Source: a virus (Duplodnaviria; Heunggongvirae; Uroviricota; Caudoviricetes). From it: a DNA stretch of 64,000 nt. A program made the translations under genes and the position numbers. Position 1 is the first letter of the stretch. Each line of letters begins with the position of its first letter. Below are positions 10,298-37,714 of the stretch, piece by piece. Below the pieces are notes generated by a model. The model was given only the letters and a program-made list of their open reading frames with translations. It was not told the DNA's origin and ran no database searches. The stretch is taken from positions 1 through 64,000 of IMG/VR virus record IMGVR_UViG_3300035034_002381. One strand, written 5' to 3'.

Positions 10298-10301
10298 CTA
10301 T

Positions 10302-10379: not shown

Positions 10380-10382
10380 CAA

Positions 10383-10476: not shown

Positions 10477-10479
10477 TTT

Positions 10480-10553: not shown

Positions 10554-10565
10554 CATGAAAAATAT

Positions 10566-10645: not shown

Positions 10646-10661
10646 CAAGTAGGAGAAATTT

Positions 10662-10746
10662 AGTCCAGTGGCGAAACAGGTATACGCACAAGATTTAAGC
10701 TCTTGCTTCCATTGAGGAATTGCGGGTTCGATTCCCGCCTGGATTA
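10662..10746 (+). tRNA. tRNA-Leu(TAA), canonical class II
   Basis: acceptor agtccag/ctggatt, D gcga-aacaggtata-cgc, anticodon arm caaga-ttTAAgc-tcttg, long variable arm, T gcggg-ttcgatt-cccgc. Confidence 0.8.
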
Positions 10747-10749
10747 CTA

Positions 10750-10781
10750 AGTTAGTACGGGTTCGATCCCCGTCTTGGCTA
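10750..10781 (+). ncRNA. second tRNA-like minihelix (acceptor-like stem plus T-arm)
   Basis: agttag/ttggct (wobble-rich) enclosing acggg-ttcgatc-cccgt; no D or anticodon arm. Confidence 0.35.
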
Positions 10782-10787
10782 CTAAAT

Positions 10788-10899
10788 TTGACCGTGGTGA
10801 AATTGGTAAACACACCCTTAAATCAGGGAGTATGAGAATATGTACTTGAAGCTGACGCAGAACATCATACATATGTAGGTTCGAATCCTATCGGTCGAA
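10788..10899 (+). ncRNA. 112-nt tRNA-like RNA (Leu-type D-arm) with a roughly 46-nt extra arm
   Basis: acceptor ttgaccg/cggtcga, D gtg-aaattggtaaa-cac, weak anticodon-position hairpin ccct-taaatc-aggg, extra hairpin atatgta...tacatat, T gtagg-ttcgaat-cctat. Confidence 0.45.
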
Positions 10900-10904
10900 C
10901 AAAT

Positions 10905-10978
<74 letters not shown>

Positions 10979-10983
10979 CTATC

Positions 10984-12712: not shown

Positions 12713-14710
12713 ATGAAAAAACTATTACTATTATTAATGCTATTTTCTTCTGTGAATTTATTTTCACAAGAAAATTATTTGATCCTTGATACCATTGGTA
12801 TGGATCAATACGAAAAACAAATTTTTGAGGAAAAAGTAAATTCCCCAGAATCTAACGAAGAGATTTCATGTTTAACCTTATTTGCTGGATCCAGACATGA
12901 ATTTAATTCAAAGTTAAAATCAATTAACGAATCAAAAAGCAATGTTGATATTAACGAAACTATTAGAATTCCCGTTGTTTATCATATTATGCACATTACC
13001 AAATTTGGTCTTGGTGGAGTTCCTTTCGAATCAGGACTAATTAGCAAACAACAAGTGTGGTCTGCTTTGGATGATCATATTAAAGGATTCCAAGCATATG
13101 TTGGGACTCGTCAAGAAACGGGATATGATACTAATATAGAATTTTATTTAGCAAACCTGGATGAAGAAGGAAATTTATTTGACGGTGTTATTTATTATGA
13201 TATGGACACAGTCCCCTGGGTAACTACTGAGGAAAGAGAACAATTTTTTAATTTCGGAATGTTTGGTATTGGACTTGATGATTTCTTAATCAAAAATAAC
13301 ATTTCATTAGACCCTGATAGATATCTAAATGTTTACATTACTCCAGAGATTTCTGGTAATGATGGAGGTAATGGGATCCAAGGATATGCATTTTTTCCAG
13401 GTGGTACTCAAGCACTTTGGGGACAAACAAATTTATCAAATATAGTAGGATTACCTTCAGTAAACTATTATGATGCTGATTTTGATGGTATAATGGACGA
13501 AGGAGTGGGGCCTTTACTTAAACCCAGTGCTCAAGAAAATGATACCCATCCACACGAAACCGGACATAATTTCCGTCTTTATCATACATTCCAAGGACAA
13601 AGTTGTGCAATTGAAGGTAATTGTGATACCCAAGGAGATGGAATCTGTGATACGGAGCCAACCCCACGTAATACCCAATGTAATTATAATGGGTGTCCGA
13701 CTCCTACCCCCGTTTCTAATAAGAATTATATGTCATATTCAGAATGCAGGTTTGAATTTACCGAAGACCAAAACCATGAAATGCGATCTTCTTTCACTGA
13801 AGATCTACCATTACTTGTTAGCAGTATTGATTCGGGATTATGTTATATTCCAAGACAAACCCAAGTTGAAATGATCATCCCACAATCAAACGATATAACA
13901 GGATGTCCCGATTCTCCTTTCCTTTCTTTTACTGTAAGAAACCTAGGTCCTGAAGTTGATTCAACAGGAATCCCGGTTATGTTAACAAATCTTGTTATAG
14001 CTTATGGAAATGATTTGTCTAACGTTGACACGTTTGAATTTAATTTAAATTTAGGTCCTTTCCAATATGATGATTTAGTTTTACCTTCTGTAGATAATCA
14101 AAGTTCAAATAGAAAGATCAAATTACTTTCTGTTAACGGATTTCCGGTAGAAGATTCAAGCACTCTTTCTACTAATCTTCCAGTAGGACCTAATGAATTA
14201 ATTGTAGTTTGCCAACCAAACTGTTCATCAATACAAGATAATTATTGGAAAGTTACAAATTTAAATACTGGAACTATTGCATTCCAAAGTGAATATTATC
14301 CTGTTAATTATTCAGGACCTCCTATCGAAACAAGGATCTGTTTACCTGGAGGCAATTATCAATTTTCATTAATTGATGAATCTGAAAATGGTTGGAATGG
14401 TACTTTTTGTAATCCCGATTTTTTCGATGAACCATTTATGGAAGTTTATTACAATGGATCCTTATGTCAATCTATACAAGGTGATGAATTTAATAGTTCT
14501 GAGTGGTCATTTACAAATTGTAACACTAGTACTCAGGGACTGATTGAAAATGAAGAAGAACCTGTTTTAGAATATGAGTACTATACTCAACAAATGGAAA
14601 GAGTAGAATTTGAAGATATTGTTACAAACCAATTCTTTATAATTTATACTTATGAAAAATCTGAAAGTTCTAGAGAGTTGATCGATAGAGATTGGATCAT
14701 AAAACAGTAA
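12713..14710 (+). CDS. secreted zinc metallopeptidase, M43 (pappalysin/ulilysin-like)
   Basis: signal peptide MKKLLLLLMLFSSVNLFSQ; HETGHNFRLYHTFQG fits the M43 HExxHxxGxxH-type motif; Cys-rich; C-terminal strand-rich tail ending IIKQ resembles a T9SS sorting domain. Confidence 0.7.
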   Translation: MKKLLLLLMLFSSVNLFSQENYLILDTIGMDQYEKQIFEEKVNSPESNEEISCLTLFAGSRHEFNSKLKSINESKSNVDINETIRIPVVYHIMHITKFGLGGVPFESGLISKQQVWSALDDHIKGFQAYVGTRQETGYDTNIEFYLANLDEEGNLFDGVIYYDMDTVPWVTTEEREQFFNFGMFGIGLDDFLIKNNISLDPDRYLNVYITPEISGNDGGNGIQGYAFFPGGTQALWGQTNLSNIVGLPSVNYYDADFDGIMDEGVGPLLKPSAQENDTHPHETGHNFRLYHTFQGQSCAIEGNCDTQGDGICDTEPTPRNTQCNYNGCPTPTPVSNKNYMSYSECRFEFTEDQNHEMRSSFTEDLPLLVSSIDSGLCYIPRQTQVEMIIPQSNDITGCPDSPFLSFTVRNLGPEVDSTGIPVMLTNLVIAYGNDLSNVDTFEFNLNLGPFQYDDLVLPSVDNQSSNRKIKLLSVNGFPVEDSSTLSTNLPVGPNELIVVCQPNCSSIQDNYWKVTNLNTGTIAFQSEYYPVNYSGPPIETRICLPGGNYQFSLIDESENGWNGTFCNPDFFDEPFMEVYYNGSLCQSIQGDEFNSSEWSFTNCNTSTQGLIENEEEPVLEYEYYTQQMERVEFEDIVTNQFFIIYTYEKSESSRELIDRDWIIKQ

Positions 14711-17119: not shown

Positions 17120-19195
17120 ATGAACAAAGATTCTAATGTATTATTAATACTTGAAAGATCTTCATCAAATCTAGATGTTAACAAGGAATCGGGTGATTAT
17201 ATTCTCGAAGGTATTTTTGCTCAATTTGGAGTTGAAAACAATAACAAAAGGATTTATGAGGAAAAAGAGTATTTACCACATCTCGAATACTTAAAAAAGA
17301 AAATTTCAGAAAATCGATTGATGGGAGAACTTGATCACCCAGAAAAATTTGAAATTGCTTTAGACAAAGTATCTCACGTAATTGAGAATATTGAATATGA
17401 TCAAGCAAAACGCCAGATTAAAGGGCGTGTACGTATTTTAGATACGCCATCCGGAAAAATCGCAAAGAGTCTAATCGACTCTAATATTCCTATTAGTATT
17501 TCATCACGAGCTGCTGGTTCTGTGAGTGAAAATAAAACTGTTTCTATTAAGAGAATTTTTACTTATGATTTAGTTGCTGATCCAGGTTTTGAAGATGCAC
17601 AATTATCAAGAATAAATGAATCATTTGGTTTAGACAACGAAAATAATCTACAAATTTTTGATGCTTCTAGATGGGACAACAATTTTTCGTTTGATGAAAA
17701 AGAAAAAGAAAAGCCTGTTGAGGCAATAAAAGAAAATAAAGAAAATACTACAGATATGAAAGAATTTGTGACAATTGAAAGCATGGAACGCTATTCATTA
17801 ATGGTCAAAGAAGAAATTGCTAAAATCAATACACGATTAGAAACTCTGAATGAGAGTAATGCTAATTCTGATGAAACAGCAGAACTTAGAAAAACCGTTG
17901 ATAATTTAGTAGGGTATGTTAATGAAATGGCTACCGAAATTAATCAAAACAGAGAATACATGTCATATACTGCTGAAATGCTTGACGAAAGTATTTCTTG
18001 GTCAGAAAATGAGATCGGTAATCAAGTTACTAAATTAATTGAATATACTGAATCTGAATTGGCTGTTCATCTTGATGGTTTAATTGAACACAATAACTAT
18101 CTTGCAGAAAAATTAAACACGACTATTGGATACGTTAATGAAGAATTGGCTCCAATTTTAGATGAGTCTATTAATCACAATGATTATTTAGTTGAACAAA
18201 TTGCTAATAACCGAAAATATACTGAGTATCTTGCTGAAAATGCTGTAGACTCAACAAATTTTGATTCGTTAGTAGAATATACTGAACATGTATATGAAAA
18301 TGCTGCTGGAAAATTTGAAGGTAAAATTAATGAATCTGCAACTGCTGAGGATGTAATTAAAAAACATAAACTTAAAACACATCACGATGTTGCTAAGTTT
18401 ATAGGAGATTTTTATGATTTACCAGATACAATTAAAGGATCTACCGATAAATTCACATTTAAAGACGTTGAGGACAACGTAATTAAAGTTGATGGTAAAG
18501 CAGGAACAGTAGACGGTAAAAAATTATCTCTGGCGGGATTGGTTGATCTTATGTCAGGTGGTGATTTTGATCTTCTTATTGAAAATCAAGCTAATAAAAT
18601 TAACGAAAATAAAAACGTATCAACAGATATTGAAAATCGATACATGAGTATCAATGAAAAAATTGACGCGGCTCTTGAGCAGATCAAGAAAACAAAGACT
18701 GAAGAAATCACAGAGTCTAAACGTCATCCTTTCACCAAACTACTCAACGAAAGTAATAGAGCTGCTTTCACTGAGTTAGGAAAAACCGAAAAAGAAAAGG
18801 TTTCAAAAGCTCTAAATGAAAACGGTATTTTAAGTACTGTAAAACTTAACGAAAAATTCACTTCATTGTTAGAAGGTAATTTCGAAATTGTTGAAGAGCC
18901 TAAATGGTTATCTGAAGCACCAGACAAGTATAAAGCTATTTTTGAAAGTTTGAATGAGGAAACTCAGGATAAACTTAGAGCTCAAGCTTCATGGTACGAA
19001 GGTAAACTTAAATCTCCTTATCAAATCGAAAATTTCTGGGCAACTAGAGGACTGAACGAAGACGTTGAGTTGAAGAATCTGAAAGACGATGCTGATGTAA
19101 AACTTATTAAAGAAAGTAATGATAGATCTAAAGATCTGGGTTATTCTTCTGATCGAGTTGCTGCAATTAAACAAGGTCTGAAAAGATTCAAATAA
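17120..19195 (+). CDS. prohead core protease (T4 gp21-like) fused to a scaffold-like coiled-coil region
   Basis: LEGIFAQFGVENNNKRIYEEKEY...GELDHP...ISISSRAAGSV parallels T4 gp21 IEGIFMQAEVVNRNKRLYPKR...GELNHP...GVSSRGLGSL; acidic helical C-terminal 450 aa; sits directly upstream of the capsid gene. Confidence 0.8.
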   Translation: MNKDSNVLLILERSSSNLDVNKESGDYILEGIFAQFGVENNNKRIYEEKEYLPHLEYLKKKISENRLMGELDHPEKFEIALDKVSHVIENIEYDQAKRQIKGRVRILDTPSGKIAKSLIDSNIPISISSRAAGSVSENKTVSIKRIFTYDLVADPGFEDAQLSRINESFGLDNENNLQIFDASRWDNNFSFDEKEKEKPVEAIKENKENTTDMKEFVTIESMERYSLMVKEEIAKINTRLETLNESNANSDETAELRKTVDNLVGYVNEMATEINQNREYMSYTAEMLDESISWSENEIGNQVTKLIEYTESELAVHLDGLIEHNNYLAEKLNTTIGYVNEELAPILDESINHNDYLVEQIANNRKYTEYLAENAVDSTNFDSLVEYTEHVYENAAGKFEGKINESATAEDVIKKHKLKTHHDVAKFIGDFYDLPDTIKGSTDKFTFKDVEDNVIKVDGKAGTVDGKKLSLAGLVDLMSGGDFDLLIENQANKINENKNVSTDIENRYMSINEKIDAALEQIKKTKTEEITESKRHPFTKLLNESNRAAFTELGKTEKEKVSKALNENGILSTVKLNEKFTSLLEGNFEIVEEPKWLSEAPDKYKAIFESLNEETQDKLRAQASWYEGKLKSPYQIENFWATRGLNEDVELKNLKDDADVKLIKESNDRSKDLGYSSDRVAAIKQGLKRFK

Positions 19196-19213: not shown

Positions 19214-21007
19214 ATGAAACTTTTAAACGAACAAAAGATCTATGATGAGTGGGCTCCTATGCTAGAGGAGGAAACTTCAATCAAAGATTCTTCAAAATTG
19301 GGATGGATGACTAAATATTGTCACTACCATTCATTAAATGAAGCATTCACTGCACCTGCAGCTGGATTGCTTAACACGCCAGGTATGGGTAATGTAACTC
19401 CTGCTGGAGCTGCTGCCGGTGGTGCTAATGCATTCTACGGAAGTACTACTACTGGTTCAGGAGATAAATTCCCTTCATTATTGCCACTATCTATTCAGGT
19501 AGCTGCAAGAACTGTAGGATTTGATATCGTTCCTGTTATTCCTATGAACGGACCTTCGGGGGTTCTTACATACATGGATTATGTCTATGCTGGTGGAAAA
19601 GGAGCATTCGGAGCACCTCCAGGTGCTGCAGGTGCTGCAAACCCAGGTCTTAACGCTTACGCTGACAAGCCGTTAGTATTCAAAATCCAACTTGTTGGAG
19701 ATGAGAAAACTGCTTTCGATGCTGCTGCTGCGGGTGATGAATTCTTATTTGCTTCTGGTGCACTTGCTGCAACTGGAAACACACTACGTGTTGCTAAAAT
19801 CGGTCCTTCTAGAATCGACGGTCACTCTATTTTTAGAGTAATTGGAGAATCTGGTGATGCTGATGCGACTGGCGGTGCAGCTGCTGCTGTAGCGACAACT
19901 CTTACATCGCCACAATCTATCACATTGGCTTCTGTATTTACAGGAACTGCTGCGATGATTACTGCGGCTGGTGCTTTAGTTGATGCTGCTGATTCAGTAG
20001 TTAATCGTCCAGAACTTGTTAAAGCTCTTGAAGATCACGTTCAAGGTTTTGCTGGTGCAGGTCCAAACGATGATGAAGCATGGTCAGGAAATGCGACTGA
20101 TGGTACTGTATCTTACGAACCAATGCGAAGAGGTGTAGGTGAAGAGCAGTACTTCAGAACTATGGGACTTCAAGCTTTCACGAAATTCATTGAAGCTGAA
20201 ACTTTCCAAGTTGCTGCTAATGTTACTACAGAACAAATTCAAGATTTACAACGTCAGTATGGAATCGATGTGATTGCAATGATCGAGAACTCATTAGTAA
20301 ATGATATCTCTCAATCTATTAACAAGCACATTCTTTCTAGAGCTTTCGCTCTTGGATGGGGTGCAAACCTTACATTCAGAGATGTTGAAGGTGCAAACCT
20401 TAACCTTGAATTGGTAAACACTGGAACTGGTGTTACTGCAACTCCTGCTTACATTGATAAGACTGGAGTAGGTACTGCATCTGTATATCCTGCTTTCCAA
20501 GAATTTGCTGGAGCTGCTGCTGCTGCATCATTGGAAAACCAAGCAACATTCCAACGAAGAGTATATTCTAAAGTACTTGCTGCTGGAAACGTTGTTACTC
20601 AAAGAGGACGTAGAGGACCTGCAAACTTCATTGTTACTAACCTTCAGTTAGCGACAGCGTTGCAAGATTCTGCACAATTCTCTTGGGCACCAATGGCAAA
20701 CACCATTAACCAAAACAACGGTTCGCTTTACCCAGTGGGTACTGTAGCCGGAATGACTGTTTATGTAGATCCTAACATGGGATTCTCTGATAACAGAATT
20801 CTTGTTGGACGTAAAGGTGCTGATGAAGAACCAGGACTTAAATTCATGCCTTACTTAATGGCTGAATCAATCCAAACAATTGCTGAAGGTACAATGGCTC
20901 CGAAAGTTGCCGTAAAATCACGTTATGCTTTAGTTGAAGCTGGACACCACCCAGAAACAATGTACTTTACTATTGCAGTAAATGTACCTGTAGGTGGATT
21001 AGTATAA
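19214..21007 (+). CDS. major capsid protein (T4 gp23-like)
   Basis: 597-aa Ala/Gly-rich ORF; VGFDIVPVIPMNGPSGVL, EQIQDLQRQYGIDV, GRRGPANFIVTN and MTVYVDPNM line up by eye with gp23 blocks; strong terminator downstream. Confidence 0.8.
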   Translation: MKLLNEQKIYDEWAPMLEEETSIKDSSKLGWMTKYCHYHSLNEAFTAPAAGLLNTPGMGNVTPAGAAAGGANAFYGSTTTGSGDKFPSLLPLSIQVAARTVGFDIVPVIPMNGPSGVLTYMDYVYAGGKGAFGAPPGAAGAANPGLNAYADKPLVFKIQLVGDEKTAFDAAAAGDEFLFASGALAATGNTLRVAKIGPSRIDGHSIFRVIGESGDADATGGAAAAVATTLTSPQSITLASVFTGTAAMITAAGALVDAADSVVNRPELVKALEDHVQGFAGAGPNDDEAWSGNATDGTVSYEPMRRGVGEEQYFRTMGLQAFTKFIEAETFQVAANVTTEQIQDLQRQYGIDVIAMIENSLVNDISQSINKHILSRAFALGWGANLTFRDVEGANLNLELVNTGTGVTATPAYIDKTGVGTASVYPAFQEFAGAAAAASLENQATFQRRVYSKVLAAGNVVTQRGRRGPANFIVTNLQLATALQDSAQFSWAPMANTINQNNGSLYPVGTVAGMTVYVDPNMGFSDNRILVGRKGADEEPGLKFMPYLMAESIQTIAEGTMAPKVAVKSRYALVEAGHHPETMYFTIAVNVPVGGLV

Positions 21008-21034
21008 GAAATATCTTAAACTATATAAATACCG

Positions 21035-21066
21035 AGAGGGGATCGAAAGATTCCCTCTTTTTTTTT
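21035..21066 (+). terminator. intrinsic terminator of the capsid gene
   Basis: agagggga-tcgaaaga-ttccctct followed by a T10 run. Confidence 0.85.
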
Positions 21067-21116: not shown

Positions 21117-22802
21117 ATGAACACTTCAGTCAAAGATATTATAAAAAACGTAAAATCCACCAAAGGTTTAGCAGTAAAAATATCAAATTCAGAAAGTCTA
21201 AATAAAGAACTTTTAGAATTAACCAAATACCTACCAACAGACTCTAGTATATCTGAGCGCATTTATAATATCTTAAATAATATTGATGTACAAAGTCTTT
21301 GTATTTGTGGTGACACATTACCATTCATTAAAATTTCCAAAGGTTACAAAACTTCGTGTGGTAATAAAGAATGTAAGTCGCGAACACGGAGTAATATTAA
21401 TAAAGAATCCAGTAAGAAAATAGACTGGGGCGAATCGATCAATAAACAACAAAAAACCAATTTACAAAAATACGGTTATGTTTCTAATCTTGCATCACCT
21501 AAAGAACGAGAAAAACATAAAGTTATTCTTAAAGAATTGACTGGATATGAACACCCATTACAGAATCCTGAATCTAAAAAGAAAAGACATAACACTTGTA
21601 TAAAAAATCATGGTACATTAAATTTCATCCATTCAAATAAATCAATACAAACGTTACAAGCAAAATATAATACCACTGCCACTAATTGTGCTCAAATACC
21701 CGAAATTCAAGATAGATCTGCCAAAACCCAATCTATAAATGCTGATAAAGCTTTATATCAAAAAATTGATAAAATAAATAAAACTATAATAGATCTTAAT
21801 AAAACAAATGCTAATATTGAGTGTGTGGGTTGTGGTCGTATTATGAATATACATCGGCAAGCACTCAATTATTATATTCGAAATTCTATTGACAATTGTT
21901 GGTCTTGCAACCCTGATTTTTCACCATTTGCCAGTAACAAAGAAAAGATGATTGTTACATGGCTCACTGATATAGGTATCACAAATATTGACACAAATCG
22001 CCGGAGATTTGGTGGTAAAGAAATAGATATTTTCTTAAATGATTATAACCTAGGAATTGAATTCAATGGCACATATTGGCATAGTGAATTACACAAAGAA
22101 AAAAATTACCATTTAAATAAAAAAACATATATTGAGAACTTGGGTTTCAAGTTGATTAATGTTTGGGAAGATGATTGGGAAGATGATATAAAACGTAATA
22201 TAATTCAAAGCAGAATTAAAAATTTAATAAACCTAAATCACCGCAAAATATATGGGCGTAAATGTCAGATAGTTCAAATATCTAACAAAGAAGCTAAAGA
22301 ATTTTATACCAATAATCATATTCAAGGTCATGCTATATCAGAAATTAACTACGCATTAGTATATGATAATGAAATTGTTTCAGTCATGAGCTTTTCTAGT
22401 AAAAATAGATTTTTCATTAAGAAAAATAGGGATAATGAAATAGAGTTGACTAGATTTGCAAATTTGATAGGTGTAAGTGTTTTAGGTGGTTTCTCTAAAC
22501 TATTCAAACATTTTTTGAAAAATAATGACCATGATACCATTATTTCATTTGCAGAATTTGATTGGACTGATGAGACTAATAATGTTTATCTTATGAATGG
22601 TTTTAAATTTTTAGGGAATTCTGGACCATCGTATTCATGGGTTGTTAATGGAAAACGGTTTTCTAGATTTAACTTTTCTAAGCAAAAATTAATCAAAGAA
22701 GGTTATGATAAGAATAAAACAGAAGTCGAAATAATGCACGAAAGAAAATATTATCGAGCTTGGAATAGTGGTAACTTAAAATTTATTTATAATAAATTAT
22801 AA
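21117..22802 (+). CDS. free-standing homing-endonuclease-like protein (PD-(D/E)xK/Vsr-like core plus Hef-like C-terminal region)
   Basis: GGKEIDIFLNDYNLGIEFNGTYWHSE nuclease-like block; C-terminal IYGRKCQIVQISNKEAKEFYTNNHIQG resembles proteins annotated Hef-like; Cys-rich N-terminus; own promoter; inserted between the capsid gene and a relic of its 3' end. Confidence 0.5.
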   Translation: MNTSVKDIIKNVKSTKGLAVKISNSESLNKELLELTKYLPTDSSISERIYNILNNIDVQSLCICGDTLPFIKISKGYKTSCGNKECKSRTRSNINKESSKKIDWGESINKQQKTNLQKYGYVSNLASPKEREKHKVILKELTGYEHPLQNPESKKKRHNTCIKNHGTLNFIHSNKSIQTLQAKYNTTATNCAQIPEIQDRSAKTQSINADKALYQKIDKINKTIIDLNKTNANIECVGCGRIMNIHRQALNYYIRNSIDNCWSCNPDFSPFASNKEKMIVTWLTDIGITNIDTNRRRFGGKEIDIFLNDYNLGIEFNGTYWHSELHKEKNYHLNKKTYIENLGFKLINVWEDDWEDDIKRNIIQSRIKNLINLNHRKIYGRKCQIVQISNKEAKEFYTNNHIQGHAISEINYALVYDNEIVSVMSFSSKNRFFIKKNRDNEIELTRFANLIGVSVLGGFSKLFKHFLKNNDHDTIISFAEFDWTDETNNVYLMNGFKFLGNSGPSYSWVVNGKRFSRFNFSKQKLIKEGYDKNKTEVEIMHERKYYRAWNSGNLKFIYNKL

Positions 22803-22822
22803 TATATACAACATATATACTT

Positions 22823-22864
22823 GTTGAGGCGGGTCACCACCCAGAAACAATGTTCCCTCTTTTT
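22823..22864 (+). repeat. relic copy of the capsid gene 3' end fused to the distal half of its terminator
   Basis: 22823-22853 matches 20933-20963 at 28 of 31 nt, all three differences being synonymous third positions (VEAGHHPETM); 22853-22864 ttccctcttttt equals 21051-21062. Confidence 0.85.
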
Positions 22865-22869
22865 ATGTT

Positions 22870-22898
22870 TAAAACTTATATTAATCTTAGATATATAA
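22870..22898 (+). promoter_or_regulatory. TAAAACTT ... CTTAGATATATAAA promoter-like motif
   Basis: near-identical to 6528-6556. Confidence 0.55.
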
Positions 22899-22918
22899 AC
22901 TACATATAATCAAATAAT

Positions 22919-23111
22919 ATGAAGACATTTAATGAATACGAACAAATCAATGAATCTGGTAATTAAAACTGCACAAAAAATTCAAATAGATCTTAAGAAA
23001 TTTCTTGAAGATGTAGTAATACCAGCATCTAATGGATATGTTAGAAATGAAGGTGATGCAGCTTTATTGTTATACGATATACTTGCACAAAAATATGATA
23101 TTACAACATAG
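22919..23111 (+). pseudogene. frame-split CTS-family gene (MKTFNEYEQINES...)
   Basis: 15-codon ORF with a CTS-like start, then a 53-codon ORF (MNLVIKTAQ...) overlapping it in another frame. Confidence 0.35.
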
Positions 23112-23235
23112 ACGCTATGAATGACGACGAAAAAATATAGTTTAAGTTCCAAATTATAGATTTAGTTAAGAAAAATCCCAACAATGAAAAACTGGGTGAA
23201 AAGATTAGATCTTTTACTAAAAATATGATATAAAG

Positions 23236-23484
23236 ATGAAAAACATAAAAGATTTTGGTGAGTTTAAATTAAATGAAAAAAGAAATGAGGCACTGAAAAA
23301 GGTTAAAACATCTTCGACTGTGCTAGATAATTTTGTTATGGATGTATTAAAAACTCAAAAGCTTTATCAAAACGAAATTCCTAAGCTACTTGCTAATGAT
23401 AAAGAATTAATAACTGAATTCAAAGAAGGTCGACAAGCATTTAATGATCTTCGAATATTAAATGATATGCTTGCAAAGAAATAA
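23236..23484 (+). CDS. CTS-leader small protein (MKNIKDFGEFKLNE)
   Basis: 82-aa ORF. Confidence 0.65.
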   Translation: MKNIKDFGEFKLNEKRNEALKKVKTSSTVLDNFVMDVLKTQKLYQNEIPKLLANDKELITEFKEGRQAFNDLRILNDMLAKK

Positions 23485-23492
23485 ATAATACA

Positions 23493-23702
23493 ATGAAAAA
23501 CTTAAAAACATTTGAACAGTTTGTAACTGATAAGCTAATGGAAGGTGCAATGTCTGATATACATCTTATGGCTAAAAATTCTAAAACTATAGAAAATTTT
23601 ATAAAAGCTTTTTATAAAAAATACGATAATAAAGTCAAGAAGGGAAAAAGCACTGATGAATGGATAATCAGTCTATATAATGATATGGAATCAAAAACAT
23701 AA
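23493..23702 (+). CDS. CTS-leader small protein (MKNLKTFEQFVTD)
   Basis: 69-aa ORF; its first 30 nt are nearly identical to those of 23712. Confidence 0.65.
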   Translation: MKNLKTFEQFVTDKLMEGAMSDIHLMAKNSKTIENFIKAFYKKYDNKVKKGKSTDEWIISLYNDMESKT

Positions 23703-23711
23703 ATACCACTA

Positions 23712-24743
23712 ATGAAAAATTTAAAAACATTTGAACAATTTGAACTAGAAAATCTTAATGAGAAAGTGGGTTATAATCAAATTTCACACAAAAATAAAAG
23801 TTTTGTAGTTTATAATCATAAAGGAATTGAAGATTTATCTAAAAAATATAAAATTGTCAACCTAAAGAATTCTGTAGGACCTGATATAGAATTTCCTGCA
23901 ATAGCAGAATTAGATAATAATAAACCTTTTATTAGAAACATCTATAGACATGAGCTTGATAAATTAGAAAAAGGAATCTTTTTCGAATCCCATAATTTAG
24001 ACAAAGATGCTAAACTTTTTGAATCTGGAGCGATAACTAAAATTTTGACAGATGCAGGATTTATCAGTTTTGAAGACTCTGATGAATATGATTATGATAT
24101 AGGAATAGGTGGAGTAATTAACACTGTTGATCCAGGTATAGCTAAAGATATAGCAGATGAATTAAATGATAATGGTATATCTGCGAAAGCAAAAAGAGAT
24201 ACTGTAATTGTTGAATCTGTGAATGAGGGAATTTACGCTGATAAACTCGCAAAAGGATTATGGGATGGTGACATGGATTTTTCCGATTTAAGTAAAAGTG
24301 AACAAGACTTAATCGACAAGTTCGTCAAAAGAAATCTTGGTATCTTTAAAGACGAAAGATTTGAGATTCCCTTTCCTGATGAAGCTGCTGACACTGGAGA
24401 GTTTTGGGATGAAATTCAAAAAGATAAAGATTACTCAAAATTTGCAAAGGCTGTTAAAAAAGCAAGTTTGGGTGAAATTGAGTTTGTGAACGAATCTATT
24501 AATCAGATTCCTGGAGAAATACAATTTAATGTTGAACCACATACGTTTCTTAAAGATCCTAGAGAACTAGACAAAGCAGTAGCTGAAGTTGATAAATATT
24601 TAGCGGGCGGTAAAGAAAACATTGGCGGATTTATGATAGATCGATATTTAAAAGATTCTTTTGATCTTGATGCGTTTATTGACTCTGTGCATTTACATTA
24701 CCCTAGACCAATGATTCCTGAAATTCAATCCAAGAATCTATGA
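23712..24743 (+). CDS. CTS-leader protein (MKNLKTFEQFELEN)
   Basis: 343-aa acidic ORF. Confidence 0.75.
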   Translation: MKNLKTFEQFELENLNEKVGYNQISHKNKSFVVYNHKGIEDLSKKYKIVNLKNSVGPDIEFPAIAELDNNKPFIRNIYRHELDKLEKGIFFESHNLDKDAKLFESGAITKILTDAGFISFEDSDEYDYDIGIGGVINTVDPGIAKDIADELNDNGISAKAKRDTVIVESVNEGIYADKLAKGLWDGDMDFSDLSKSEQDLIDKFVKRNLGIFKDERFEIPFPDEAADTGEFWDEIQKDKDYSKFAKAVKKASLGEIEFVNESINQIPGEIQFNVEPHTFLKDPRELDKAVAEVDKYLAGGKENIGGFMIDRYLKDSFDLDAFIDSVHLHYPRPMIPEIQSKNL

Positions 24744-24937
24744 ATGAAGCTAGTCATAAAAATGATTTTCTTGATTTTTTCCGAGTTCCTGATTCTAAAA
24801 GGTTAAAATTTGCAATTTATAAATTTGATGGTAATGACGATATGGATGATTTATTTGATGATCTTAAACCTTATGCATCGACAGTTGATGAGGTTAGAAA
24901 CTATTATGAAATAGCAACAAAAACACGCGATAATTAA
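24740..24937 (+). CDS. small acidic hypothetical protein
   Basis: 65-aa ORF, ATGA overlap. Confidence 0.55.
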   Translation: MNEASHKNDFLDFFRVPDSKRLKFAIYKFDGNDDMDDLFDDLKPYASTVDEVRNYYEIATKTRDN

Positions 24938-25806
24938 TGAACTTTAAAACATATTCACATCTGAAGGAAATTCTTCATGAAAGTGAAAATTATCAAGAAG
25001 TAATACATGAAGCTTTTGAATGGATTGAGGATGATTCTATTTTTGAGGCATACGCGTGGGCTTTTATTAAAAGCCCTGTTAAAGTGACTAAAATGTTTAC
25101 TAATCAAAATAAGCTTACAAAATCTTTAATTAGTCAGGCTGTTATTGATATTGATCTACAGAATCGTAAAGAAGCTGCTAAAAAAATATCTGACCCACAG
25201 AAAGCCAAAAACCAGAGAGAAAAACTCCAACAAGCTCATGACATAAAGAAAAAGGGTTTATCCGATAAAATCAGTGGTATAAAACAAAGAATTGATGATT
25301 TAGCTGGTAGTGATTCTAAACTTCAAGAATTGGCTTCAAATTTAAAAACTAAATCTGGATTAGCTGCTGCAGAGAAATTAATTAAGGCAGCTGATGGGGC
25401 AGAACAGAAAGAATTACAAATTAAGATTAGAAAAAGTAAAGAAAAACTTTCGAGACAAGAAAACATTTTTAAAGAATATGAGTCTAATCTTTCTACTGAG
25501 GATAAAGCTAAAGGTCAAGAACAAGCTAAAACTGCTAAATCTGAAGACGATGGAAAATCTGATTCTACTAAAAAGGATGCAGAGTCTTCTATTGAGGAAA
25601 AAATCGAGGCGGAAAAGGATGCAATTAACGATTTAGTTAGAGAATTTAATGGGAAGAAAAAGAAAATTGCAGAAGCTAGAAAAAGATCGCATATTACACA
25701 AGCAAAATTTGATGAGTTAATGAAAAATCTCATGAAAGAAGGTCACCAAGAAAAAATTGATGTTCATAAAAAGAACATTATAGATTTAAAAAAGAATAGC
25801 AAATAA
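24937..25806 (+). CDS. Lys/Glu-rich coiled-coil protein (weak CTS-like start MNFKTYSHLKEILHE)
   Basis: 289-aa ORF, TAATG overlap. Confidence 0.7.
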   Translation: MNFKTYSHLKEILHESENYQEVIHEAFEWIEDDSIFEAYAWAFIKSPVKVTKMFTNQNKLTKSLISQAVIDIDLQNRKEAAKKISDPQKAKNQREKLQQAHDIKKKGLSDKISGIKQRIDDLAGSDSKLQELASNLKTKSGLAAAEKLIKAADGAEQKELQIKIRKSKEKLSRQENIFKEYESNLSTEDKAKGQEQAKTAKSEDDGKSDSTKKDAESSIEEKIEAEKDAINDLVREFNGKKKKIAEARKRSHITQAKFDELMKNLMKEGHQEKIDVHKKNIIDLKKNSK

Positions 25807-26081
25807 TGAAAAAGGCAAGAACATTTACAGAATTTAATGAGTCTATATCAAACGAAGAAGAACTAAATGAAGCAGTCGATGTATTTATCGCAATTGCTGA
25901 AGCTTTAGACGTAAGTTTAGATGTCGCAAAAATGATAGTAGCTTTGGCAGGAGTCACCGGAACAGTAACTTTCGCAGCAGCAATGACAAAAATCCAAGAT
26001 GTATTGGCAAAGAAAAATCCTAAATTATCTAAGAAATTAGGTGATATTACAAAAGGAGCAAATAACGCGAGAACACAATAG
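25806..26081 (+). CDS. CTS-leader small protein (MKKARTFTEFNES)
   Basis: 91-aa ORF with a hydrophobic central segment. Confidence 0.6.
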   Translation: MKKARTFTEFNESISNEEELNEAVDVFIAIAEALDVSLDVAKMIVALAGVTGTVTFAAAMTKIQDVLAKKNPKLSKKLGDITKGANNARTQ

Positions 26082-26085: not shown

Positions 26086-26505
26086 ATGGATGATATTAGC
26101 AATGGAGGTGGAATTCTCCAAAAAACAAAGATACTTACAGTAACAAATAAGATTGGTTATGCCAAGAATTCTGAGGGTGTGACTTCTGTATTTGCTAATA
26201 CTGATATTGGAGCAGGCGATCTTATCGAGGTTGCGACCCTTCTAGAAGTTTCAGATATGGTGATGACAAATAGAGAAATTGCTGATCATGTTTTTACAGT
26301 AAATCCAGAAAGTAAACAATATGCGATCGGTTTAGGATTTGCTTGTTTATATCAACATAACGATAAACCTAACGCCGAGTGGAATATACCTAGCGATAAA
26401 AAGGAAATCAGATTTACTGCTAAAGACGACATAAAAAAATCTGAAGAAATCACAATTTCATACGGAAAGAATTATTTCCTAAGTAGAGAAAAGAAAGAGG
26501 AATAA
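26086..26505 (+). CDS. SET-domain protein (putative protein lysine methyltransferase)
   Basis: FACLYQHNDKPNAEW resembles the NHSxxPN motif and EEITISYGKNYF the ELtxdYg motif; start moved to the ATG at 26086 because the track start at 26041 is GTG and overlaps the previous gene. Confidence 0.55.
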   Translation: MDDISNGGGILQKTKILTVTNKIGYAKNSEGVTSVFANTDIGAGDLIEVATLLEVSDMVMTNREIADHVFTVNPESKQYAIGLGFACLYQHNDKPNAEWNIPSDKKEIRFTAKDDIKKSEEITISYGKNYFLSREKKEE

Positions 26506-26562
26506 ATTTTGGAATAAGCTAAAACATTTGAGGCTTTCATGAATATAAACTAAAAGATATTC

Positions 26563-26973
26563 ATGAAAGCCTTTACTTATGTTATAGATATTGATGACAC
26601 TATCAATATTACCGATAGAGATGAAAATAATATAGGACTGTATTCTCAGTCTCGGCCGATACTTAAAGTTATCAATAAAATTCGAAGACTTAAAAAAGAA
26701 GGCCACAAAATCATACTTTTTACTGCTAGAGGTATGCGTACATTTAATAATGATGTCAAAAAAATCGAAGATTTTCATAGAGAAACACTCGTTAAATGGT
26801 TAAATGACCATGAAGTCCCTTATGACGAACTACAGTTCGGTAAACCATGGGGCCCCCATGTAATATATGTCGATGATCGTGCTGTTACTATTAACCAATT
26901 TGTTTTGGGTGGTCCCGAAAATCACAGAAGTTATACACACATTAACAAAACAGTTATAAATGATGAATTATAA
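26563..26973 (+). CDS. HAD-superfamily phosphatase
   Basis: motif I VIDIDDTI, motif II ILFTARG, motif III/IV K...YVDDR. Confidence 0.65.
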   Translation: MKAFTYVIDIDDTINITDRDENNIGLYSQSRPILKVINKIRRLKKEGHKIILFTARGMRTFNNDVKKIEDFHRETLVKWLNDHEVPYDELQFGKPWGPHVIYVDDRAVTINQFVLGGPENHRSYTHINKTVINDEL

Positions 26974-34122: not shown

Positions 34123-35022
34123 ATGATATCAGAAGAAAAATTTCCCGATGGACAAATTAATTTTAAAGCAAATACAGAGGACATCAAAAGTCTTTTAACA
34201 CCACCATACATTTTATCAAATGATAATGCGATAAATTTTACAATTGATCTAAGTAACTGGGATAAATTTCAAACTTTGTTGGCAGCCAATGCAAAATTTA
34301 GACAAACGCACAAACAAATTAATTTACATATAGGTTATCTTTTTGGTTCAAGAAGTGACCGTAAATTTGAACATGACGGAATTAACTATTTTCGTGATGT
34401 AATTGCTAAAACAATCAATGATCAAAATTTCAACAAAGTTACTGTATTTGATCCACACTCACTTGCAGTAGAAAATGCAATTAATAATTGTGAGAGTATT
34501 CATCCGTTCCCACAAATCAATCACCATTTTTTAAATATGGTTGGAAATTTAGATTTATCTGAATATGAAATTGTTATAGCGTCTCCAGACCTTGGGGCAT
34601 ACAAAAAAGTCTTTGGAATTTTTGCTAAATTTTCCGAAAAATATCCAAACATACATTTTAATTTTATTTCCGCAAATAAAATTCGTAGTCTGTCTGGTGA
34701 TATTTCTATGGTTTTAAATCCACCATATAAAGAATTTGACAAATCAAAAAAACGAATTCTATATTTAATTGATGATATTTGTGATGGCGGGAGGACCTTT
34801 ATAGAATTTGCTAAACTTCTTAACGAAGATTTTGAGAAAAAGTATCTATATGTATCACATGGAATATTTTCTAAAGGTCTTGATCCATTATTAGAACATT
34901 TCGATAAAATTTTTACTACAAACAGTATTTCGAATACTTATATCAAATATCTAACAAACGATAATACCATTCTAAATTCTAACATTCTTTTTACCACATT
35001 TATTTCGCAACGCAATGAATAA
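34123..35022 (+). CDS. ribose-phosphate pyrophosphokinase (Prs)-like enzyme; candidate ADPR-pyrophosphate synthetase (Adps) of NARP1
   Basis: 299 aa; VFDPHSLAVENAI resembles the Prs DLHA loop, and YLIDDICDGGRTF is a type I PRPP-binding loop. Confidence 0.6.
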   Translation: MISEEKFPDGQINFKANTEDIKSLLTPPYILSNDNAINFTIDLSNWDKFQTLLAANAKFRQTHKQINLHIGYLFGSRSDRKFEHDGINYFRDVIAKTINDQNFNKVTVFDPHSLAVENAINNCESIHPFPQINHHFLNMVGNLDLSEYEIVIASPDLGAYKKVFGIFAKFSEKYPNIHFNFISANKIRSLSGDISMVLNPPYKEFDKSKKRILYLIDDICDGGRTFIEFAKLLNEDFEKKYLYVSHGIFSKGLDPLLEHFDKIFTTNSISNTYIKYLTNDNTILNSNILFTTFISQRNE

Positions 35023-35989
35023 AAAAGCAACAATTCTTCTTGGACTGCCATTAGCAGGCAAGTCGACTTATATAGGAAACAGAATAGAATATGGTGATTG
35101 GTCAGACACAGGATTAGTTTTAGTATCTGCAGATGATCTTAAAGAAAATCATGAAGATTATGATCCCGACCATGCGTATAAAATTCATGAGTGGTCAGTT
35201 AAAGAGGCCGAAAGGCAAATGAAAGAATACTCAGAATTTGGATCAAAACACATTATCATGGACGGTGGTGGCATTAACAATTCATATACTCGTAGAATTA
35301 TGTCTGATCTACGTTTAAAAGGTTATGAAATTGAACTTATACATATTAAAACGCCGCTCCAAGTTTGTCTTCTTAGAAATGAGAAGCGGGTCCGCAAAGT
35401 TCCAGTGCATGATATTGTAACAAAGGCAGCTCGAGAACGTAAACAATATGAGATACTTAAAGATGTTGTAGATAGTGTTACTATAGTTCCATATTTCACA
35501 AACAAACATATTTTTATAGATATGGATGGAGTTATTGCGGGACAGTCTGTCTTGCCAGAATTTGAAGGAAAAATAGATTTTGTTAATAGCGAAATTTTTA
35601 CTATTTTACCACCTGTTCATCAAGTTATTGATAAACTTAATAGTCTTGATTCTGAAAAACATACACTTTATATTTTATCAGCAACACCGAATTCATATTC
35701 GTATACTGAAAAACATGATTGGTTAGATAAACATTTTAACATACCAAGAGAACGCAGATTTTTTGTAAATGCTGGAAAGCATAAAGCAGAAATGTTAGAA
35801 AATCTAAGAATAAAACTCAAAACTGATAAACGTGATGTCACTCTGATTGAAGATACGCACTCGACACTTAAAGATGTTAGAGACCTTAGAATGAATCCAA
35901 TACATGTATCTGAATTTTTATCAAATGATTTTTTGCGAGATGAAGAATTATATGACTATAAATATTACGAAAACCCAAATAATAAATAA
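35015..35989 (+). CDS. P-loop kinase fused to HAD phosphatase (T4 polynucleotide kinase/phosphatase-like architecture)
   Basis: GLPLAGKST Walker A; IMDGGGINNSYTRR and RNEKRVRKVPVHDI parallel T4 Pnk ISDTNLNPERR and RNSKRGTKAVPIDV; C-terminal FIDMDGVIA is a DxDG HAD motif. Confidence 0.5.
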   Translation: MNKKATILLGLPLAGKSTYIGNRIEYGDWSDTGLVLVSADDLKENHEDYDPDHAYKIHEWSVKEAERQMKEYSEFGSKHIIMDGGGINNSYTRRIMSDLRLKGYEIELIHIKTPLQVCLLRNEKRVRKVPVHDIVTKAARERKQYEILKDVVDSVTIVPYFTNKHIFIDMDGVIAGQSVLPEFEGKIDFVNSEIFTILPPVHQVIDKLNSLDSEKHTLYILSATPNSYSYTEKHDWLDKHFNIPRERRFFVNAGKHKAEMLENLRIKLKTDKRDVTLIEDTHSTLKDVRDLRMNPIHVSEFLSNDFLRDEELYDYKYYENPNNK

Positions 35990-35995: not shown

Positions 35996-37714
35996 ATGAG
36001 AAAAATGAACGCTTTCTTAGCAACCGATGGTTATAAAACAGGCCATCACATAATGTATCCTGAAGGAACTATTGAGGTATATGATAATTTAACACCCCGC
36101 AGTTTTAAATACGCAATCAACAATGTCGAGTATGTTATTGCTGTGGGTCAAAAAATGGCAGTCACAGAAATCAACGATATGTTTAACGAAACATTTTTTA
36201 GACATGAAGATGTTGAAAGACTTGCCTTTCATTTATTTAGACAAGGATTACCTGAACAAAAAGCTAAAGAAACCGCAAGAAATAAAATTAAAGCCGAAGT
36301 ATGTAGTGAAATCAAAAAGGAGTTTTCGTTATATCTAGATATGAAATATGATGTTTCGCATATTGAAAGACTTTGGGATTTAGGATATCTTCCTGTAAAA
36401 ATAAAAGCTTTACCAGAAGGTGTAAAGGTCCCAATAAAGGTTCCTGTACTTACAATTGTAAATACTTTGCCAGATTTTTTCTGGTTACCTAATTTCTTGG
36501 AGACTATTATTTCTAATTTGTTATGGAAACCTATGACATCTGCAACTATTGCGTACGAGTTCAAGAAAACTTTGACTAAATGGGCAATGAAAACTGATAG
36601 CAAAAATGTTTCTATTGTAGAATTTCAGGCACATGATTTTTCAATGCGAGGAATGGATTCTATTTATGCTGCTGCTTCATCAGGTTTAGGTCATGCATCA
36701 TCATTCCTTGGAAGTGATACAATACCAGTAATTCATGCAGCAAGATATTATTATGGTGATCAAGGTCCTATTATACATTCTGTAAATGCTACAGAACACA
36801 GTGTCATGTGTGCTGGAGAAAAAGATAGTGAAATTGAAACATTCAGACGATTATTGCGTCTTTTCCCGACAGGAATCTTATCAGTAGTTTCTGATACTTG
36901 GGATTTATGGAAAGTGATAGTAAAATATCTTCCTGAATTAAAGGACGAAATTCTAAAAAGAGCAGGAAAACTGGTTATTAGACCTGACTCTGGAAATCCT
37001 GTTGATATTATTTGTGGTTTTGATCATAATAGATTTGATACACACGAAGAAGCAGAAAAATATTATAGAACTTATGGAATAAAAGATCCAAAATACTATG
37101 TAAAAAACGAATTCTTTACTGTAATTTCACATTCAGGCAACAATTTTAAATATGCAGATTTAGAAGAGACTCCTGCTGATAAAGGAGTCGTGCAATTATT
37201 ATGGGAAATCTTTGGAGGGCAAATAAATGAAGATGGATTCAAAGTTTTAAATGAACACATTGGCGCAATTTATGGTGATAGTATTAATTTCGAAAGAGCA
37301 AATCAGATTTGTGAGAGACTAGCCAGCAAAGGATTTGCGACTACAAACGTTGTACTTGGAATAGGATCCTTCACATATCAGTATAACACTCGTGATAACC
37401 ATGGATTTGCCGTTAAAGCTACTCATATAACTATTCAACATCCTGATGGAAAAATGGAAGAAAGAGACATATTCAAAGACCCACTAACATCGGTAGGTAC
37501 AAATAAAACTAGTGCTAAAGGATTTATTCAAGTACTTAAAGAAAATGGAGAGTATATTATGAGAGATCAGGTTAGTAGAGAACAAGAAGAAAATTCTTTA
37601 CTTACAATGATTTATTTAGATGGTAAAGTTCTTTCCGAAGACACACTCAAAAGTATTCGTAGAAATGTGAATAACGAATTGGCTGTTGAATTAGGATTAT
37701 ATGAAGTAGCATAA
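35996..37714 (+). CDS. nicotinamide phosphoribosyltransferase (NAMPT/NadV)-like enzyme; candidate Namat of NARP1
   Basis: N-terminus LATDGYKTGHHIMYPEGT matches the NAMPT TDSYK..H pattern; 572 aa, longer than typical NAMPT. Confidence 0.65.
   Translation: MRKMNAFLATDGYKTGHHIMYPEGTIEVYDNLTPRSFKYAINNVEYVIAVGQKMAVTEINDMFNETFFRHEDVERLAFHLFRQGLPEQKAKETARNKIKAEVCSEIKKEFSLYLDMKYDVSHIERLWDLGYLPVKIKALPEGVKVPIKVPVLTIVNTLPDFFWLPNFLETIISNLLWKPMTSATIAYEFKKTLTKWAMKTDSKNVSIVEFQAHDFSMRGMDSIYAAASSGLGHASSFLGSDTIPVIHAARYYYGDQGPIIHSVNATEHSVMCAGEKDSEIETFRRLLRLFPTGILSVVSDTWDLWKVIVKYLPELKDEILKRAGKLVIRPDSGNPVDIICGFDHNRFDTHEEAEKYYRTYGIKDPKYYVKNEFFTVISHSGNNFKYADLEETPADKGVVQLLWEIFGGQINEDGFKVLNEHIGAIYGDSINFERANQICERLASKGFATTNVVLGIGSFTYQYNTRDNHGFAVKATHITIQHPDGKMEERDIFKDPLTSVGTNKTSAKGFIQVLKENGEYIMRDQVSREQEENSLLTMIYLDGKVLSEDTLKSIRRNVNNELAVELGLYEVA

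Follow-up and report, generated by a model that had tools for sequence, protein, structure and literature searches.

We analyzed a 139-residue protein encoded at positions 26086-26505 of a 64,000-nt stretch of tailed-phage DNA (hereafter the window; positions 1 to 64,000 of IMG/VR record IMGVR_UViG_3300035034_002381, Caudoviricetes), which is by fold and sequence a minimal SET-domain protein like vSET (A612L) of the chlorovirus PBCV-1. Judging from its sequence and modeled fold, it is most likely an S-adenosylmethionine (SAM, AdoMet)-dependent protein-lysine methyltransferase. The reading that we favor, with moderate confidence, is that it is a leaderless descendant of capsid-targeted phage SET methyltransferases, which would be made together with the internal head proteins and would act inside the infected cell.

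The open reading frame (ORF) runs on the + strand from an ATG at 26086 to a TAA stop ending at 26505, and it is a real gene under purifying selection. The same 139-aa protein, 100% identical, occurs on seven contigs of independent samples (ENA, JGI, Logan) with a shared gene order; two orthologues were found, with 73% and 69% identity to the window SET protein, and the pairwise ratios of nonsynonymous to synonymous substitution rates (dN/dS) among these three clade orthologues are 0.10-0.26, with dS near saturation. Word-indexed homology searches returned the two close orthologues only; further relatives needed a full HMMER scan. Within the 64-kb window, no SET paralogue was found. A chance ORF with a spurious motif match, for which the general AT-richness of the window (32% GC) is the sole argument, is already refuted by the domain match, fold, conservation and purifying selection, and its probability is negligible.

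An earlier note on this DNA had recognized SET motifs from the letters alone, an observation that proves to lie well beyond chance in view of the Pfam SET and vSET matches, the orthologues and the dN/dS values. The Pfam SET profile (PF00856) matches at E = 4.1e-11 with 43.7 bits, above its curated gathering cut-off of 22.4, and covers profile positions 4-105 of 105. In a phmmer search of PDB sequences, PBCV-1 vSET (1n3j) ranks first (E = 1.1e-9); next come Plasmodium PFL0690c and S. pombe Set7. The AlphaFold2 model, built on an 82-sequence alignment drawn from the full HMMER scan, has a predicted local distance difference test (pLDDT) score of 84.5 and a predicted template modeling (TM) score of 0.73, with residues 21-130 at pLDDT 86-98; the three-orthologue alignment alone gave an unusable model (pLDDT 33). 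Foldseek against the PDB gave 358 matches at E<=1e-3, of which the top 50 are SET domains throughout. The best is vSET 3kma_A (E = 1.8e-9, target-normalized TM score 0.88, root-mean-square deviation 1.9 Å over 106 columns, 26% identity), and PFL0690c, SUV420H1, S. pombe Set7 and MLL1 come after it. Thus the Pfam score above cut-off and the confidently modeled fold, for which the PDB gives SET domains as the best matches and vSET as the first, both bear out the SET-domain identity; the structure prediction that the earlier note had suggested as a check contains the SET beta-fold, and its concern that the protein might have no SET fold does not apply. No PHROGs family matches the window SET protein.

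Among the conserved SET motifs, I (GxG), III (NHxCxPN) and IV (ELxFDY) contact AdoMet, the motif II Tyr is a proposed active-site base, and motifs III and IV form a pseudoknot (PMC3585878). The gene and its motif regions are placed as follows:

26086-26505, + strand: SET-domain gene, 139 aa, minimal vSET-like architecture, no leader
26107-26127, + strand: pre-SET motif GGILQKT (residues 8-14), which in relatives directly follows the leader; pLDDT 52-55
26176-26196, + strand: motif I region GVTSVFA (residues 31-37), canonical GxG replaced by V32-T33-S34
26284-26295, + strand: motif II-equivalent DHVF (residues 67-70), family Tyr replaced by His68
26347-26376, + strand: motif III LYQHNDKPNA (residues 88-97), His91 and Pro95-Asn96 kept, Asn90 replaced by Gln
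26446-26487, + strand: motif IV EITISYG with a catalytic-type Tyr126, and post-SET KNYFLSR (Y130, F131, R134)

Motif IV agrees with the ELxF/YDY pattern, with its catalytic Tyr and flanking aromatics, in reading E121-I-T-I-S-Y126-G127 and then Y130 and F131. Counted per column across 82 relatives, as are all residue counts given here, Y126 is Tyr in 81, G127 is Gly in 82 and R134 is Arg in 75. The segment matches vSET EEITISYGDDYW and, taken with the post-SET part, is near-identical to vSET EEITISYGDDYWLSR. The residues kept in the window protein are His91 (His in 80 of 82), Pro95-Asn96, Glu121, Tyr126, Gly127, Tyr130 and Arg134. The other motifs depart from the family. Position 32 is Gly in 54 of the 82 and Val in the window, and position 34 is Gly in 69 and Ser in the window. 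Position 68, which aligns with vSET Y50, is Tyr in 71 and His in 4, and position 90 is Asn in 70 and Gln in 5, with both His68 and Gln90 invariant in the three orthologues. Motif III therefore reads QHNDKPN against NHxxxPN, where Gln90 keeps the amide on a side chain that is one methylene longer. By its sequence, the leaderless clade has remodeled three of the four SET motifs and keeps the catalytic Tyr and the fold.

The earlier note had assigned residues 89-99 (YQHNDKPNAEW) and 120-131 (EEITISYGKNYF) to NHSxxPN and ELxxDYG motifs. The location and the ELxxDYG type stand; what it took for NHSxxPN is QHNxxPN, with Gln for the nearly invariant Asn, so that the fit is less canonical than was stated, and with three of four catalytic motifs noncanonical the enzyme activity is less certain than was implied. 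These changes raise the alternative that the SET fold, with lost or changed chemistry, was kept for a noncanonical role after a packaged-effector stage, either as a pseudoenzyme that binds Lys peptides or SAM or with altered product or nucleophile specificity. It would explain why substitutions coincide at the conserved positions 32, 34, 68 and 90, and why the motif I loop is not conserved even among the three orthologues (VTS in the window, KTS and IPI in the others); the P0007-type phage subfamily described below drifts likewise, and the affected motifs are those that contact AdoMet or supply the proposed base (PMC3585878). Yet Tyr126, His91, Pro95-Asn96 and the pseudoknot-forming EITISYG are strictly kept within a full SET fold in the model, Gln retains the amide of Asn, His can hydrogen-bond like Tyr, and the clade-wide invariance of His68 and Gln90 together with the low dN/dS fits a pocket that still functions. 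We regard this alternative as rather unlikely, though it is the main rival of the reading that we favor.

Members of the phage subfamily share a conserved pre-SET consensus, G-(L/I/M)-L-(R/K)-(K/R)-(S/T), which vSET does not have. The R-K-S/T core of this motif is similar to methylation sites of histone H3 (ARKS), and it is pure speculation on our part that the segment might be an automethylation or pseudosubstrate site.

The head module in which the gene lies has a capsid protein and a prohead protease of the same types as T4, where the 10 residues of the capsid-targeting sequence (CTS), MKTYQEFIAE, suffice to package foreign proteins, residues 4 and 7 directing targeting and residues 8 and 10 (L/I-x-E) directing gp21 cleavage (PMC8442874). 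Cleavage by gp21 follows L/I-x-E, and the T4 ADP-ribosyltransferase Alt is packaged and ejected (PMC9026906). The features of the window that bear on this comparison are:

17120-19195, + strand: prohead protease of the T4 gp21/Peptidase_S77 type, 691 aa (phrog_207 head maturation protease, E = 3.2e-40; PF03420)
19214-21007, + strand: major capsid protein, Gp23 type (PF07068, E = 4.3e-35)
21034-21059, + strand: terminator-like hairpin directly after the capsid gene, 11-bp stem and T-run
23236-26081, + strand: array of five leader genes directly upstream of the SET gene
23236-23484, + strand: leader gene, N-terminus MKNIKDFGEFKLNE
23493-23702, + strand: leader gene, N-terminus MKNLKTFEQFVTDKLME
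23712-24743, + strand: leader gene, N-terminus MKNLKTFEQFELENLNE
24740-24937: leaderless ORF of 65 aa inside the array span
24937-25806, + strand: leader gene, N-terminus MNFKTYSHLKEILHE
25806-26081, + strand: leader gene, N-terminus MKKARTFTEFNESISNEEELNE
26531-26572, + strand: perfect 16-bp hairpin, 26 nt past the SET stop, containing the ATG (26563) of a HAD phosphatase gene

The leaders have the T4-CTS-like form MKxxKTFxxF...LxE, and the array that they define lies directly downstream of the prohead protease and capsid genes. A loose regular expression for the leader fits 13 of the 73 gene starts, as compared with 9 of the 307 internal Met positions (p = 2e-5), and the L/I-x-E site is present in the window's own leader genes. 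Further leader genes of the window start at 6577 (MKNVKNFREFLNE) and 46797 (MKNLKSYENFENQLLE), and MKNLKTFEQFELE and MDFKSFEEILE are examples from the lineage. The earlier note's term "CTS-leader family" for the genes upstream of SET is thus a reasonable reading by analogy with T4, and its placement of the SET gene, with leader-bearing genes upstream and sugar genes downstream, agrees with what we find. The leader-coding DNA and ~18 nt upstream of it are repeated between leader genes with 71-82% identity (23475-23536, 23694-23755, 25788-25835); recombination at such repeats could exchange cassettes, as has been suggested for the internal-protein loci of T4.

The SET protein of the window sits in this context, a phage with gp23-type capsid protein and gp21/S77 protease and a leader-gene array, and has no leader itself, a point that the earlier note had missed, as it had the leaders on the orthologues of sister phages. 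Its N-terminus, MDDISNGGGILQKT, contains no aromatic-x-x-aromatic pattern in the first ~10 residues and no L/I-x-E site in the first 45, and its two orthologues are leaderless as well; in L007 and L010 (L and P numbers are our handles for related sequences) the gene is flanked on both sides by leader genes. In sister phages, whose capsid proteins are 58-60% identical, the SET orthologue occupies the same place, ~2 kb past the protease and capsid genes and among leader genes. The closest relatives outside the clade (P0159, P0160, P0004 and P0005, 37-44% identity) all start with a leader and L/I-x-E. Relatives begin as follows, a slash marking the putative cleavage site:

L016/17: MDFKSFEEILE/SDIFVHGGGLLRKT
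L018: MDFKMFEETAGE
L012: MIDFKTFES...IYE/PQG
P0159, P0160 and P0004: MNFGSKLYE/S...
P0005: MRTFDNFLNE/E
P0006: MKVFNDILNE/D
P0012: MKKFLEFINE/A
P0023: MITFTEFITE/G
L013, L024, L076/P0164 and L078/P0031: SET orthologues that likewise start with a leader

Most leader-bearing relatives carry the cleavage-site variants ILE, IYE, IKE, LYE, LNE, INE or ITE. By sequence, these orthologues would qualify as CTS internal proteins, and from the T4-CTS-like leader we predict that they are packaged in the head and ejected. The window N-terminus aligns right after their putative cleavage site, i.e., with their mature form. Since nearly every neighboring lineage has a leader, its loss in the window clade is the parsimonious, though not proven, reading of the sequences; since the window protein starts where the mature form would start, we predict that the CTS route does not package it.

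Two ways in which a leader might be supplied were considered and rejected. An upstream in-frame start would have to lie in the frame open back to 26041, which reads MILQKEQITREHNRN; a frameshift fusion to the upstream 91-aa leader gene would join differing frames over a junction that is not conserved (4 nt separate the two genes in the window and 14 nt in L007, and in L009 they overlap by ATGA). In P0006 (255 aa), the SET domain is fused in frame to the next leader gene (...NKNEGNDMKTFNDVINES...), which indicates that the SET gene and leader cassettes abut in other genomes too.

The window SET protein might still be a virion-delivered effector of host takeover or anti-defense, packaged with no cleavable leader, e.g., through a leader-bearing partner or the scaffold core, and ejected to act on nucleoid, transcription or defense proteins, in the manner of vSET on histone H3 or T4 Alt on RNA polymerase. 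All three clade members are embedded among leader genes, relatives carry leaders, vSET is packaged and Hc1 genes neighbor the SET genes of relatives; moreover, T4 internal proteins are anti-defense cassettes that share only the CTS (PMC3012670). It is the CTS, however, that confers packaging in T4, and the window N-terminus has neither the aromatic pair nor L/I-x-E, nor does an upstream in-frame start or a conserved frameshift fusion supply them; we judge delivery in the virion improbable for this copy.

The gene spacing and hairpins group the SET gene with the head and leader block and not with the sugar block that follows it. Between the capsid and SET genes, no terminator-like site was found on the + strand other than the hairpin at 21034-21059. 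The RNA of the hairpin at 26531-26572 folds with -27.5 kcal/mol (z = -6.9; none of 200 shuffled sequences reached this stability), and this hairpin marks the boundary between the two blocks; it could be terminator-like or a translational control element that sequesters the ATG of the HAD phosphatase. Downstream of SET lie genes for the HAD phosphatase, a nucleotidyl transferase, a GT2 glycosyltransferase and an FkbM methyltransferase. Adjacency to this block in the window and in the two orthologues would suit a SET protein that functions with the sugar and nucleotide-sugar genes, e.g., by modifying their enzymes or a glycan-bearing protein; but a strong hairpin stands between the SET and HAD genes, leader genes intervene in L007 and L010, and wider relatives keep SET beside capsid and leader genes with no sugar genes adjacent, so that this functional link is very improbable.

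Several observations weigh against an active enzyme descended from packaged ancestors and made with the head proteins, the reading that we prefer. Two features by which active SET lysine methyltransferases are recognized, the GxG of motif I and the Tyr of motif II (YxG; Tyr50 of vSET, which lines the lysine channel), are missing from the window protein, the latter replaced by His68, and with three of four SET motifs altered its SAM binding or catalysis may be weakened or changed. Its membership among the demonstrably active SET lysine methyltransferases is not established by sequence, and we judge an active methyltransferase only somewhat more likely than a SET fold put to another use. The absence of a leader and of L/I-x-E from the window copy confines the packaging argument to relatives; the role of the leader as a capsid-targeting signal is itself drawn from its resemblance to T4, and PHROGs and Pfam give no annotation for the window leader proteins. 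In a neighbor-joining tree, the window clade has 100% bootstrap support, and its place within the phage subfamily is not settled. Scans of the window gave 14 sites of the T4 late-promoter motif TATAAATA where 13.6 were expected and 46 sigma-70-like sites where 45 were expected, neither above chance, so that co-transcription of SET with the leader genes is suggested only by gene spacing and hairpins. Finally, no Hc1-like gene, the candidate substrate gene of related phages, was found in the 64-kb window by tblastn or by profile against six-frame ORFs.

With these points taken into account, we propose the following scheme. The SET gene would be the last in a row for predicted capsid-targeted internal proteins, which runs from the terminator of the capsid gene to the post-SET hairpin. 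In sister phages, the propeptide (aromatic-x-x-aromatic, then L/I-x-E) would load SET into the prohead, a gp21-type protease would trim it, and ejection would carry SET into the host with the DNA, in a way that resembles T4 Alt and PBCV-1 vSET. In the window clade, the propeptide was probably lost and the protein now begins at the mature start of its relatives; synthesized alongside the internal proteins, it may work in the cytoplasm of the infected cell. As its substrates, the Lys-rich internal head proteins encoded with it, or else nucleoid or defense proteins of the host, would be most plausible.

Candidate substrates of the first kind are present in the window, where three leader proteins, those of 23236-23484, 23493-23702 and 24937-25806, are Lys-rich and basic (17-19% Lys, pI 9.2-9.4); T4 internal proteins are likewise highly basic (PMC8442874). 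In four related phages (L016/17, L018, L024 and L076/77), Hc1-like genes for 59-61 aa lie 0.7-4.8 kb downstream of SET, and their products match Pfam Hc1 (PF07432, "histone H1-like protein") over its full length at E = 1e-17 to 1e-22:

L016, 8115-8291: Hc1-like gene
L017, 9559-9735: Hc1-like gene
L018, 9116-9298: Hc1-like gene
L024, 5638-5820: Hc1-like gene
L076, 4260-4442: Hc1-like gene

These proteins span only the ~57-residue Hc1 domain with no Lys-rich tail, and their N-termini (MKTYNEI..) resemble the T4 CTS. Chlamydial cpnSET methylates Hc1, and archaeal Go1-SET methylates MC1-alpha (PMC10117894). The earlier note had named virion, ribosomal and host nucleoid proteins as possible targets; the context favors virion-internal or nucleoid proteins over ribosomal ones as candidates.

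Among characterized proteins, the closest in sequence and fold is vSET, a minimal viral SET-domain H3K27 methyltransferase of demonstrated activity. Both are virus-encoded single SET cores of ~120-140 aa with no pre-SET or post-SET Zn clusters, and they share a near-identical C-terminus, EEITISYG-x-x-Y-[WF]-LSR. They differ in that the host of the window phage is a bacterium without histones; the window protein, known from sequence and model, reads VTS where vSET has GYG, with His in place of Tyr50 and QH in place of NH, carries a ~20-residue N-terminal extension with GGILQKT and lacks its own packaging signal. PBCV-1 virions contain packaged vSET (PMC7019647), and this particle delivery may parallel the predicted packaging of the leader-bearing phage orthologues.

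The single-domain SET proteins of prokaryotes offer a second comparison. Go1-SET acts on MC1-alpha, and cpnSET/NUE acts on Hc1 and on host histones; the SET and nearby Hc1 genes of sister phages echo the cpnSET-Hc1 pair of enzyme and substrate. Cellular proteins of this architecture share 30-41% identity with the window protein over its residues 35-126, about as much as vSET does or more, and those from Methanosarcina may, judging from the genus, be orthologues of Go1-SET. The group (Methanosarcina Go1-SET, chlamydial cpnSET/NUE, Bacillus BaSET) resembles the window protein in being single-domain, and its characterized members methylate DNA-packaging proteins (PMC10117894). In contrast to the phage proteins, they are cellular and have no capsid-module context, CTS-like leader or pre-SET GLLRK motif, and unlike the window protein most keep GxG, Tyr and NH.

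The third comparison is with IPI-III and Alt of T4. The window lineage shares with T4 the gp23-type capsid protein, the gp21/S77 protease and arrays of unrelated small genes with a common leader that resembles MKTYQEFIAE and ends in L/I-x-E, and Alt is a precedent for delivery of a protein-modifying enzyme by packaging and ejection. The T4-type internal proteins are diverse anti-defense cassettes with the CTS alone in common (PMC3012670). The mature parts have no sequence homology, a SET methyltransferase standing against an ADP-ribosyltransferase; the leader consensus in the window lineage is MKN-L-K-T-F-E-Q-F, the window SET is leaderless and packaging in the lineage is predicted.

Beyond the phages considered so far, 1.84 billion cluster representatives were searched with a profile; 2031 proteins reached E<=1e-3 and 216 reached E<=1e-10, the best matches outside the window's own clade reaching only ~E = 1e-28. 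The family is a widespread "minimal SET" group that includes chloroviruses and, besides them, many sequences with N-terminal transmembrane segments that are giant-virus-like in appearance. At least 578 loci are in cellular genomes (30-41% identity), from Patescibacteria, Saprospiraceae and other Bacteroidota, Gammaproteobacteria, Methanosarcina and Bacillus. A second phage SET subfamily (P0007, P0010, P0014, P0019-22, P0026 and others; L014, L015, L020-L023) has an N-terminal ...LNEDFYNPFDE and a long C-terminal tail ending in a conserved NPAVSGVAIKGLGQQ; some of its members have an N-terminal extension of 200-550 aa. Its genes are located among leader-type genes, and its proteins have no GxG and carry Q, R, K, S or T for the canonical Asn.

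The earlier note had called SET domains uncommon in phages. Their rarity holds: of 50,697 GenBank phage records, tblastn matched 8 when the window SET protein was the query, all huge uncultured phages, and 2 when that of L016 was, and the window protein has no PHROGs family. Nevertheless, BFVD and UniProt contain entries named "SET domain containing protein" from uncultured Caudovirales phages (A0A6J5L8Y2, E = 2e-10, TM score 0.72-0.78) and a SET-domain ORF (ORF62) is listed for Stenotrophomonas phage Ps15 (PMC9025141), so that a SET domain in a phage is not new as such. The tblastn matches, tailed-phage SET folds like that of the window, include the 735-kb LR756501 (33.6% identity) and Lak phages (24.8% identity). 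Unlike the window gene, that of LR756501 lies in an unrelated setting, away from capsid and leader genes, and its motifs are canonical (GWG, NHS); the ORF listing of the Lak SET region is fragmented, probably from an alternative genetic code. We found no functional study of a phage SET protein in the literature searched, where absence is no proof, and to our knowledge no phage SET enzyme has been characterized.

The window is a fragment of a large uncultured phage of the gp23 lineage. That the element is a phage, as the earlier note had it, is supported by the Gp23-type capsid protein, the S77 prohead protease and 21 tRNA genes. All large ORFs of the window are on the + strand. The capsid protein of the window shows 40-43% identity to its counterparts in the 462-kb huge phage LR756500 and in Prevotella Lak megaphages; at the nucleotide level, no match of the window to GenBank phages was found, and related IMG/VR contigs reach 238 kb. 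The tRNA genes lie in three clusters (229-1094, 3901-4355 and 9277-10979), with Met, Tyr and Ile duplicated; many tRNA genes in clusters are typical of very large phages. A nicotinamide phosphoribosyltransferase gene (35996-37714; phrog_448, E = 8e-172) stands beside a Zeta_toxin/AAA_33 kinase-like gene (35015-35989), and the two form an NAD+ salvage module like those described from jumbo phages. The ORFs at 8646-8870 and 12713-14710 have signal-peptide-like N-termini (MKKVTFLILILFNINLWAQE and MKKLLLLLMLFSSVNLFSQE) such as are common in secreted proteins of Bacteroidota, a hint at the host phylum that is in line with the Lak/Prevotella kinship of the capsid.

Just after the capsid gene, a block at 21117-23702 holds a 561-aa endonuclease-like gene (weak Pfam matches to DUF7487 and MTES_1575 REase-like) and three small ORFs, of which two are leader genes. 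It is present in the window, L001 and L005 and missing from otherwise near-identical contigs (L002-L004 and L006), and a 31-nt copy of the capsid gene 3' end (20933-20963) lies at 22823-22853, followed by a remnant of the terminator tail. The block looks like the scar of a mobile insertion.

SET protein-lysine methylation is a hallmark of eukaryotic chromatin control, and the few prokaryotic and viral examples act on DNA-packaging proteins. Against this background, head-module fixation of a phage SET gene, a CTS-like propeptide on most orthologues, the Hc1 neighborhood and a leaderless, remodeled clade are new here to the extent that the literature searched holds no account of them. A wider reading joins the observations in two parts, and as a whole we offer it tentatively: large gp23-type phages, kin of the Lak and other huge phages, would load a SET methyltransferase into the head by means of a T4-like propeptide and inject it, with histone-like DNA-packaging proteins (of Hc1 type, or the phages' own Lys-rich internal proteins) as substrates. 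In the window clade, the propeptide would have been dropped and the active site remodeled, and the enzyme would have turned from an injected effector into one that modifies head-internal proteins within the cell, perhaps with a changed product specificity. If the window protein is inactive, the finding shrinks to an unusual but ordinary accessory gene. Within the head module, SET keeps a fixed position across a widespread group of large uncultured phages, most members of which tag it with an apparent T4-type propeptide and some of which place it next to an Hc1 gene; this gives a phage SET enzyme a concrete and testable setting. If the reading is true, these phages inject a "chromatin-type" enzyme into bacteria, or methylate the proteins that are packed with their DNA; an injected SET would be the bacterial-virus counterpart of chlorovirus vSET, would form a new class beside the injected effectors of T4 (Alt, IPI) and would extend the vSET strategy from algal viruses to bacteriophages. 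The window copy, with no leader and an altered pocket, is the informative exception, a natural comparison for the roles of the leader and of the canonical motifs.

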